A stretch of 64,000 bases of DNA, from positions 13,271 through 77,270 of the forward strand of contig JAZDFI010000008.1 of NCBI GenBank assembly GCA_043808015.1, written 5' to 3'. Origin of the DNA: Candidatus Aenigmatarchaeota archaeon. GTDB taxonomy: Archaea > Aenigmatarchaeota > Aenigmatarchaeia > QMZP01 > QMZT01. A model generated the notes under the pieces. The model worked only from the letters and a program-made list of their open reading frames with translations. It did no database searches and was not told where the DNA came from. Positions 24,255 to 48,704 of the stretch are shown one piece after another (the stretch's first letter is position 1; every line of letters begins with the position of its first letter). Both the position numbers and the translations under genes were made by a program.

Positions 24255-24336
24255 CAATGCTTTTTAAGCAAAGGCCCGTTAAATTTTATTTAGCTTTTAT
24301 GGCTCTTATTTAACAAAATAAGACAAAGTGATAAAT

Positions 24337-25554
24337 ATGGCGAACGAGGACATTCGGAAGCGACGGCTGAAAGATATAGTCGAAGAACTCGACAACTTCC
24401 GCGGGCGCCACACGGAGCTAATATCTGTTTACATACCAGCAGGATTCAACCTCTACAAGGTGGTCGAGCAGATAAACAGCGAGAAATCTACGGCCCAGAA
24501 CATAAAGTCGAAGACGGTTCGCAAGAACGTCATGTCCGCGCTGGAGCGCATAACACAACATCTCAAGCTCTACAAGCAGACGCCTCCGAATGGCCTGGTC
24601 ATTTTCGCAGGCAACATTTCCGAGCGTGAGGGCGTTGACGACATAGAAATATACGCTCTGGAGCCGCCGGAGCCGCTTAACCAGCGGCTTTACAGGTGCG
24701 ACCAAAAGTTTGTCCTTGACCCGCTGAAAGACCTCATACGCGAGCGCGAGATATTCGGCATAGTTCTTATAGACAAGTCAGAGGCCGACATCGGCCTGCT
24801 GCACGGCAAGAAGGTCAGGCCGCTCAAGCACCTGGACTCGATGGTGCCGGGCAAGACTGAAGCGGGTGGCTGGTCGCAGGCACGATACGCTCGAGTGCGC
24901 GAAGGCCTGCTGAACGACTTCATGAAAAAAGTCGGCGAAATCGCTTCCCAAAATTTCAGCGACCAGAAGGATTTGCTGGGCGTGATTGTAGGAGGACCCG
25001 GCCCGATAAAGGAAATGTTCGCGAGAGGCGATTTCCTGAGATACGACTTCAAGAATAAAATAATCACGGTAGTCGACACGTCTTATATGGGCGAATACGG
25101 CCTCGAGGAAGCGGTCAATCGTGCCGAGGAGGCGCTCAAGGAAGCGAGCGTCATGAAAGAGAAACGAATTCTCATCCGCTTTTTCAACGAGCTCGGCAAG
25201 GATTCCGGCCTGGCGGTATATGGTCTCAAAGAGACCGTGGAAGCGCTCAAATCAGGAGTCGTCGAGTTGTTAATGGTTTCAGAGCATTTGGACTGGGTTA
25301 AAGCAAACATAAAATGCCTCAATTGCGGCGAGGAAAGGGAAGTCGTAATGCTGCGGGACAAGCTGGAGAGCCTGAAATGCGAAAAGTGCAGCGAGCTCTA
25401 CGAGATTCTGGCAGAGAAAGACCTTACGGACGAGATAATCAAGATGGCCGAGGAAATGAACACGAAAGTCGAGATGGTTTCCGCCGACACGAAGGAAGGC
25501 GCGCAACTGAAAGACATGGGCGGAATCGGAGGGATTCTCAGGTATAAGGCTTAG
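24337..25554 (+). CDS. prf1: Peptide chain release factor aRF1 (GGQ position reads GGW)
   Basis: NIKS (AQNIKSK) and YxCxxxF (YRCDQKF) are present. The middle domain reads VPGKTEAGGWSQARYARV where aRF1/eRF1 have ...GGQSxxRFxRL. A zinc-ribbon insert sits in the C-terminal domain. ATG at 24337 (the track start is GTG). Confidence 0.85.
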   Translation: MANEDIRKRRLKDIVEELDNFRGRHTELISVYIPAGFNLYKVVEQINSEKSTAQNIKSKTVRKNVMSALERITQHLKLYKQTPPNGLVIFAGNISEREGVDDIEIYALEPPEPLNQRLYRCDQKFVLDPLKDLIREREIFGIVLIDKSEADIGLLHGKKVRPLKHLDSMVPGKTEAGGWSQARYARVREGLLNDFMKKVGEIASQNFSDQKDLLGVIVGGPGPIKEMFARGDFLRYDFKNKIITVVDTSYMGEYGLEEAVNRAEEALKEASVMKEKRILIRFFNELGKDSGLAVYGLKETVEALKSGVVELLMVSEHLDWVKANIKCLNCGEEREVVMLRDKLESLKCEKCSELYEILAEKDLTDEIIKMAEEMNTKVEMVSADTKEGAQLKDMGGIGGILRYKA

Positions 25555-48668: not shown

Positions 48669-48704
48669 GAAACATTGGCGAGTTGTCCTGACAAAAAGGA
48701 TCTG
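48669..48704 (+). promoter_or_regulatory. 5' arm of the 23S processing stem
   Basis: GAAACAT-TGGCGAGTTGTCC-TGACAAA-AAG-GATCTG pairs with 51817..51855. Helices of 6, 7, 13 and 7 bp are separated by 3-nt bulges (bulge-helix-bulge-like). Confidence 0.7.

Follow-up and report, generated by a model that had tools for sequence, protein, structure and literature searches.

Here, we describe an archaeal class I release factor (aRF1) that reads GGW where its family reads GGQ, so that Trp stands at the position of the catalytic Gln. The gene lies in a 64,000-nucleotide stretch of DNA from a Candidatus Aenigmatarchaeota archaeon (contig JAZDFI010000008.1), which is called the window in the following and to which all coordinates refer. 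The Gln of the GGQ motif is routinely called universally conserved; GGQ is the sole motif common to the release factors of bacteria and those of archaea and eukaryotes, which are otherwise unrelated, and its Gln is methylated by a dedicated enzyme in all three domains of life. We consider the window protein to be probably a genuine, working class I release factor, in which Trp has replaced the catalytic Gln in its Aenigmatarchaeota lineage, and we infer a mechanism by which it would act.

The aRF1 gene and its product

The aRF1 gene is located on the + strand at 24328..25554 and ends with TAG. Translation from a GTG start at 24328 gives 408 amino acids, while an ATG at 24337 gives the 405 amino acids of the NCBI protein (P0001). 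The catalytic loop is encoded by the codons GGT GGC TGG TCG CAG (24865..24879, +), that is G180 G181 W182 S183 Q184, with the Trp codon at 24871..24873. The stop-codon recognition motif NIKS occupies residues 58-61 (24499..24510, +), and the YxCxxxF motif is found as YRCDQKF at residues 122-128 (24691..24711, +).

All three Pfam domains of the family, eRF1_1, eRF1_2 and eRF1_3, are recognised above their cutoffs (65.8, 124.8 and 86.1 bits, respectively). With the equivalog model of aRF1, TIGR03676 (cutoff 234.7), the protein reaches 476.6 bits and covers the model from position 2 to 402 of 403. The models of Pelota (TIGR00111, 79.9 bits, cutoff 177.65) and of acVLRF1 (NF041024, 46.2 bits, cutoff 125) stay below their cutoffs, and the Pfam acVLRF1 match (46.4 bits) sits beneath the stronger eRF1_2 match. 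Where the aRF1/eRF1 family reads GGQ, the protein reads GGW (residues 180-182) and retains the two glycines and the next Ser. Its GGWSQ agrees with the GGxSQ pattern of acVLRF1 and aVLRF1. VLRF1 proteins are further marked by having no decoding N domain, whereas the window protein has such a domain, with NIKS in it.

In a phmmer search against solved structures, the loop vpgkteaGGWsqaryarvr pairs gap-free with vpgkqrkGGQsaqrfarlr of the aRF1 structure 4af1, and likewise with GGQsalrfarlr of human eRF1. Since these alignments are ungapped, Trp is placed at the Gln position. An AlphaFold (AF2) model with a mean pLDDT of 78.9 shows GGW in a flexible loop directly before the long helix of the middle domain. 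The best structural matches of this model are aRF1 (4af1, E 1e-38) and the ribosome-accommodated eRF1 5lzu; Pelota and Balon are also among the fold matches.

A sequence-only reading of this window had described a normal-length aRF1 with intact NIKS and YxCxxxF motifs and Trp at the Gln position, which is borne out by the codons, the TIGR03676 score and the ungapped alignments. The latter speak against a second suggestion made there, namely a loop insertion that brings the downstream Gln into register. The same reading had stated that all three stop codons are in use, in agreement with the stops of 58 non-overlapping long open reading frames in the window (TGA 23, TAG 19, TAA 16). Judged by its sequence, the window protein is an aRF1 ortholog that departs from its family in the catalytic motif.

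GGW is a trait of a deep clade

The best 120 homologs were taken from a collection of 5.8 billion proteins and stem from NCBI, ENA, JGI and Logan assemblies. GGW was found in 118 of them, at 58-100% identity to the window protein; of the other two, one carries GGQ, and the second is likewise a GGW sequence, with an intein inserted. The named sources among these homologs are Candidatus Aenigmatarchaeota. In an alignment of 45 clade members, G177, G178, S180 and R183 (405-aa numbering) are invariant and W179 is nearly so. Out of 130 GGW sequences, 127 retain NIKS and all 130 retain the Y, C and F of YxCxxxF. The data show that Trp has become fixed in a deep, species-rich clade and is maintained by purifying selection. 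Conserved alongside it are the remaining loop pattern (VPGK..GG.S..R[FY].R), both stop-codon motifs and the fold with its three domains.

The GGQ exception (P0078/P0270) comes from assembly GCA_964555875.1, i.e., CAZKUD01. Its Gln codon is CAA and its loop reads GGQSA. P0270 is 62-68% identical to the GGW proteins and only 53% identical to the nearest GGQ sequences outside the clade. In a simple neighbour-joining (NJ) tree with 200 bootstraps, the main GGW clade together with P0270 is monophyletic in 93.5% of the replicates, and GGW without P0270 in 0.5%; a recheck of this nesting by likelihood methods is advisable. On the NJ topology, Gln would have been regained in this one lineage. P0270 and the GGW gene P0037, located on a 297-kb contig, have the neighbourhood aRF1-Nop5-...-TtuA-eIF5A in common. 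Because P0270 nests in the GGW clade and shares this synteny, the GGW gene is to be seen as the aRF1 ortholog and not as a side copy. Nesting and synteny were both observed; the status as sole copy was checked in the 64-kb window only.

Recurrence of Trp, Phe and Met in archaeal aRF1

A wider survey of aRF1, based on a search of 1.84 billion cluster representatives, revealed further replacements. A neighbouring clade in the NJ tree comprises sequences with GGW (P0125, P0132, P0135), GGF (P0123) and GGM (P0127, P0129, P0134, P0140). This clade is weakly supported, being monophyletic in 54% of the bootstraps and joined to the main clade in 27.5%. Isolated GGW lineages (P0166, P0195, P0215, P0239; P0195 is from assembly PWMI01) and GGF lineages (P0147, P0162) adjoin GGQ sequences in other parts of the tree. 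They retain YxCxxxF as well as NIKS, the latter as NIKL in P0166 and NIQD in P0162. Two sequences with GGE, whose decoding motifs are degenerate, probably represent something other than aRF1. The recurrence is no trivial slip, since the exchange of Gln (CAA/CAG) for Trp (TGG) takes at least two base changes. From the sequences collected here, the Gln of GGQ is not invariant in archaeal aRF1; the opposite had been assumed for release factors of class I in the sequence-only reading, and several archaeal lineages with Trp, Phe or Met speak against it. Among the aRF1 positions that separate GGW from GGQ sequences, none near the loop except residue 182 is common to the independent Trp and Phe lineages.

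All seven independent origins of Trp, Phe or Met have Ser-Gln after the replaced residue (GGxSQ), versus 19 of 96 GGQ sequences (approximately 20%). If the origins are independent, the chance of this is about 0.2^7, roughly 1e-5. Within the main clade, 38 of 130 sequences (approximately 30%), distributed over several subclades, read GGWSANRY or GGWSASRF and contain no loop Gln. In our reading, the replacement may have been tolerated on a GGQSQ background, leading to GGWSQ, and the Gln at +2 may have become dispensable later.

The same position is also a target of inteins. In approximately 59 of 150 aRF1 cluster representatives, an intein is inserted precisely after the Q/W/F/M residue and before the next Ser (GGx|C...), which corresponds to 24873|24874 of the window. 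Hosts include P0087, P0121, P0123-P0125 and P0127-P0130, and P0142 (JAZDNN01) is a GGQ aRF1 with an intein. As GGW, GGF, GGM and GGQ hosts all bear inteins, the insertion site lies in the catalytic motif itself. In some of these representatives, another intein is found close to YxCxxxF (query residues 121-130).

The peptidyl-transferase centre

The window also holds the gene for the binding partner of the catalytic loop, the 23S rRNA (48693..51828, +; full-length match to Rfam LSU_rRNA_archaea with 2477.5 bits). For comparison, we aligned it both with the Rfam consensus for archaea and with rrlH of E. coli, whose numbering is used for the peptidyl-transferase centre (PTC). The 5' strand of the PTC, 2447-2454 (51161..51168, +), reads GGUAAUGG and shows A2448G, C2452U and A2453G, while G2447, A2450 and A2451 are kept. 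The 3' strand, 2497-2506 (51404..51413, +), reads UCUCCGCCGU and shows A2497U, C2499U, U2500C, A2503C and U2504C, with G2505 and U2506 kept. In the segment 2576-2586 (51483..51493, +), G2576U and U2586A are found and G2583, U2584 and U2585 are kept; A2602 is unchanged as well. Several of the exchanges are paired: 2453/2499 goes from A:C to G:U, and 2452:2504 from C:U to U:C. The three changes noticed before, at 2452, 2453 and 2504, are hence real and belong to a larger set.

Positions 2452, 2453, 2499, 2500, 2503, 2504 and 2576 (window 51166, 51167, 51406, 51407, 51410, 51411 and 51483) are sites of resistance mutations for PTC-binding drugs such as chloramphenicol, anisomycin, linezolid and pleuromutilins (compare PMC4652758). 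The ribosome encoded in the window may be intrinsically insensitive to PTC-binding drugs.

A pattern that leaves 2497, 2499, 2500, 2503 and 2504 free and requires the flanking signature bases was used to scan for further 23S genes. In metagenomes it matched 93 loci. The U, U, C, C, C set at the free positions occurs in 93 of 93 and U2452/G2453 in 92 of 93. The sole exception, L073 (FWWL01008195.1), combines C2452 with G2453 and the full variant 3' strand and could represent either an intermediate form or a reversion. Among the species-representative genomes, the U, U, C, C, C set is present in 31 of 39 matches, mostly labelled Aenigmatarchaeota or simply archaea. Three variant 23S genes in bins labelled Freyarchaeota, Desulfobacterales and Pseudomonadota look like bin contamination.

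A GGW gene and a variant PTC were found on the same contig in four cases: the window itself, a 1,105,251-bp contig (P0003; L002/L138), a 104,666-bp contig (P0035; L009/L160) and a 44,891-bp contig (P0025; L140). P0025 is of the GGWSASRF type. ProRS adjoins the rRNA operon in L002 and L009, and not in L003 and L010. None of the 93 metagenomic 23S loci contains an aRF1 gene, and for P0270, P0272 and P0127 there is no rRNA within 10 kb of aRF1. The scan matches include no 23S locus from the assemblies of P0195 (PWMI01) and P0142 (JAZDNN01), and none of the GGF, GGM and GGQ clusters could be linked to the scanned 23S contigs.

The assembly of the GGQ lineage P0270 (contig CAZKUD010000003) carries a full variant PTC as well, on CAZKUD010000007.1 (L127). 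Over 2,522 nt, L127 is 100% identical to a contig of a JGI metagenome that also has a P0270 contig. Since the assembly of this nested GGQ lineage has the same changes, the altered ribosome represents a shared background rather than a strict co-variant of Trp. If the bin is right, the variant PTC works with Gln and Trp alike. A co-variation of factor and ribosome, as proposed in the sequence-only reading, is thus upheld in one part, a variant PTC in every linked GGW genome, and is called into question in another, the same PTC beside a GGQ factor. What is established is one co-occurrence at clade level, compatible with a permissive or predisposing background.

A second group of 23S genes from DPANN archaea, labelled 'Nanobdellati archaeon' or 'archaeon' (L131, L141, L143, L148, L149, L152), shows another PTC variant with A2453U, C2499U and A2503C, and with C2452U in two of them. 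Variation in the second shell of the PTC is therefore not confined to the GGW clade.

A proposed mechanism

Studies on canonical factors indicate how a release factor could manage without the Gln side chain. The backbone amide of the Gln can catalyse hydrolysis (PMC6742477). A Q-to-P exchange abolishes activity and leaves the loop undeformed, and packing by the side chain serves to select water and is strengthened by N5-methylation (PMC4691834). In RF2, the methylated Gln fits a narrow pocket of A2451, C2452 and U2506 (PMC11890864), as the sequence-only reading had stated. A2451 and C2452 also make up the A-site cleft, in which amino-acid side chains, aromatic ones among them, are bound (PMC6393236).

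We propose that the GGW loop docks in the PTC as the canonical loop does. Residue 182 would contribute its backbone amide, which jointly with the PTC would promote hydrolysis of peptidyl-tRNA, as proposed for the backbone amide of the Gln in bacterial release factors. The indole would insert into the pocket of A2451, nucleotide 2452 and U2506 and would pack there in place of the Gln side chain, which is normally N5-methylated. The replacement would have arisen on a GGQSQ background, in a lineage with a remodelled second shell of the PTC (U2452, G2453:U2499, C2500, C2503, C2504, U2576). That the natural replacements are Trp, Phe and Met would be explained by the A-site cleft, as it normally holds side chains including aromatic ones and these three residues are typical ligands of it. 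The ribosome of the lineage would tolerate Trp and Gln, since the nested lineage carries Gln again.

A further-reaching version is conceivable, and we regard it as tentative. Trp, Phe or Met in the A-site cleft would run termination in the whole lineage and, independently, in several others. This would be enabled by the remodelled PTC and perhaps accompanied by loss of the methyltransferase Mtq2, such that factor and ribosome are co-adapted. If true, the selection of the nucleophile and the sensitivity to PTC-binding compounds would differ from the canonical system, and the pair could serve as an orthogonal termination system.

In the lineage of P0272, an Mtq2/HemK2 gene (TIGR00537, 195 bits) was detected 6 kb upstream of aRF1, at L122 3183..3785, and also in L123. 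P0272 represents a GGQ Aenigmarchaeota lineage with 50% identity to the window protein. Among the best 120 of 189 matches of a word-limited search for Mtq2 homologs, none comes from a contig with a known GGW gene. A loss of Mtq2 in GGW lineages is put forward as a hypothesis only, because this homolog search is of limited sensitivity.

Several points weigh against a working factor with Trp as the functional replacement. The PTC changes are not specifically tied to Trp, as CAZKUD01 with its GGQ factor also has the variant PTC. Gln at +2 accompanies every independent origin of Trp, Phe or Met, which hints at a role that a model of backbone catalysis plus packing does not require. Substitutions of the GGQ Gln in yeast and human eRF1 are reportedly damaging (Frolova 1999, Seit-Nebi 2001). 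Finally, tblastn found no second aRF1 within the 64-kb window, the scope of that search, and a canonical copy may exist elsewhere in GGW genomes.

Alternative explanations

The alternative with the best standing assigns catalysis to the downstream Gln. Q184 and not residue 182 would then be functional in a shifted register, as in the GGxSQ motif of aVLRF1 and acVLRF1, and Trp would be an added anchor only. Since GGxSQ is reported for Vms1-like families, in aVLRF-1 and acVLRF-1 (Burroughs and Aravind 2019, PMC6514570), this stays a live rival for GGWSQ proteins. The window protein is one of them, and the enrichment of Ser-Gln in all seven independent origins, compared to 19 of 96 GGQ sequences, is in line with it. 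However, the 38 of 130 main-clade sequences described above have no loop Gln at all, and one of these, P0025, shares its contig with a variant 23S (L140). In addition, the loop of the window protein equals that of canonical aRF1 in length and aligns without gaps, whereas the VLRF1 loop is described as longer (PMC6514570), and the GGQ lineage P0270 reads GGQSA. On balance, we regard a shifted register as rather unlikely and continue to prefer Trp at residue 182 as the functional replacement.

It is also possible to imagine a non-catalytic paralog, which was raised as an alternative in the sequence-only reading. The GGW protein would only recognise stop codons or stalled ribosomes, in the manner of Pelota and Balon, and another factor would hydrolyse the peptidyl-tRNA. 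Superfamily members without a catalytic Gln do exist, as Pelota and Balon among the fold matches illustrate, and the search for paralogs covered the 64-kb window and not whole genomes. Yet the protein scores 476.6 bits with the aRF1 equivalog and 79.9 bits with the Pelota model (cutoff 177.65), and the conservation of NIKS and YxCxxxF, of the glycine pair and of the loop around it is what a factor reaching the PTC would show. The gene neighbourhood is that of the GGQ ortholog P0270, which nests inside the GGW clade. No second aRF1 is present in the window, and none of the closest GGQ clusters shares a contig with a known GGW gene. Equivalog score, synteny and nesting disfavour the paralog, and we consider it improbable.

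An artefact or a recoding, i.e., TGG as a sequencing or assembly error or TGG read as Gln, is hardly credible. The homologs with GGW number 118 and come from assemblies of NCBI, ENA, JGI and Logan; GGW is thus a clade-wide trait of many independent assemblies, which excludes an error even without inspection of reads and refutes this earlier alternative. The exchange of CAA/CAG for TGG would also require at least two base changes. TGG is ordinary Trp here: of the 14 Trp of the window ProRS, 13 are matched by Trp in most or all of six distant homologs.

Further features of the rRNA loci

The loop of helix 89 in the window 23S contains a 195-nt insertion relative to the Rfam archaeal consensus (approximately 51194..51388). 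It folds stably, with -93.3 kcal/mol and a z-score of -6.4 across a 245-nt stretch containing the insertion. Relatives have an insertion of approximately 150 nt (L002), approximately 40 nt (L009) or none (L127). The insertion could represent either an expansion segment or an intron. In L126, L128, L134, L137, L145, L154, L161 and L163, the 23S homology stops abruptly after GCUGGG (approximately 2583) or about 40 nt past CCUGG (approximately 2524), which suggests rRNA introns inside the PTC region. A LAGLIDADG open reading frame is found near the rRNA operon in L009 (12433..13074). The metagenome-assembled genome CSMAG_1028 (DAOVCJ01) has two different variant-type 23S genes on two contigs (L156, L162) and represents either a mixed bin or a genome with two rRNA operons. 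Downstream of the 23S gene in the window, Rfam identifies a 109-nt tRNA at 54658..54766 (58.7 bits), which presumably contains an intron; ARAGORN reports no tRNA in the whole 64 kb.

Significance and comparison with known systems

We found no description of a GGW, GGF or GGM aRF1 in the full-text literature, the coverage of which is incomplete, so that an earlier mention is possible. A survey of the superfamily gives GGQ as the motif of the classical aeRF-1 domains (PMC6514570). The Trp, Phe and Met variants and the returned Gln amount to a natural mutagenesis series. This series supports catalysis via the backbone and packing in the pocket, not via the amide side chain, and provides ready sequences for testing the role of the Gln side chain and its methylation. 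It also shows that the catalytic centre of the ribosome is less frozen in DPANN archaea than textbooks imply. From a practical point of view, annotation or quality filters that demand GGQ would wrongly flag GGW genes.

The window protein resembles canonical aRF1/eRF1 (TIGR03676; 4af1, 3agk, 1dt9, 5lzu) in its three domains, in NIKS and YxCxxxF, and in a VPGK..GG.S..R[FY].R loop of equal length. It also shares the C-terminal domain with a zinc-ribbon-like CxxC...CxxC insert, the equivalog-level score and the neighbourhood of the GGQ ortholog. It differs in that the GGQ Gln, the substrate of Mtq2-Trm112 methylation, is Trp here and Phe or Met in related lineages.

Laboratory substitutions of the GGQ Gln in bacterial RF1 and RF2 and in human eRF1 point in the same direction as GGW, namely that the side chain is not the chemical catalyst and that the backbone amide matters (PMC4691834, PMC6742477). 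Those variants were engineered, are mostly impaired and act on an unaltered ribosome, whereas GGW is natural, fixed in a deep clade and recurrent, and occurs together with a remodelled second shell of the PTC.

With aVLRF1 and acVLRF1 (Burroughs and Aravind 2019), the protein shares membership in the aeRF1 superfamily, and GGWSQ fits GGxSQ. In contrast to the window aRF1, the VLRF1 proteins are without the NIKS decoding domain, have a longer loop and play a role in ribosome rescue. Many orthologs of the window aRF1 are in turn without the downstream Gln.

Pelota/Dom34 and Balon have the same fold and likewise no catalytic Gln. Pelota and Balon are known to lack the whole GGQ loop as well as the stop-codon motifs and are not release factors. 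The window aRF1, unlike these two, has kept both glycines, its loop and its decoding motifs.

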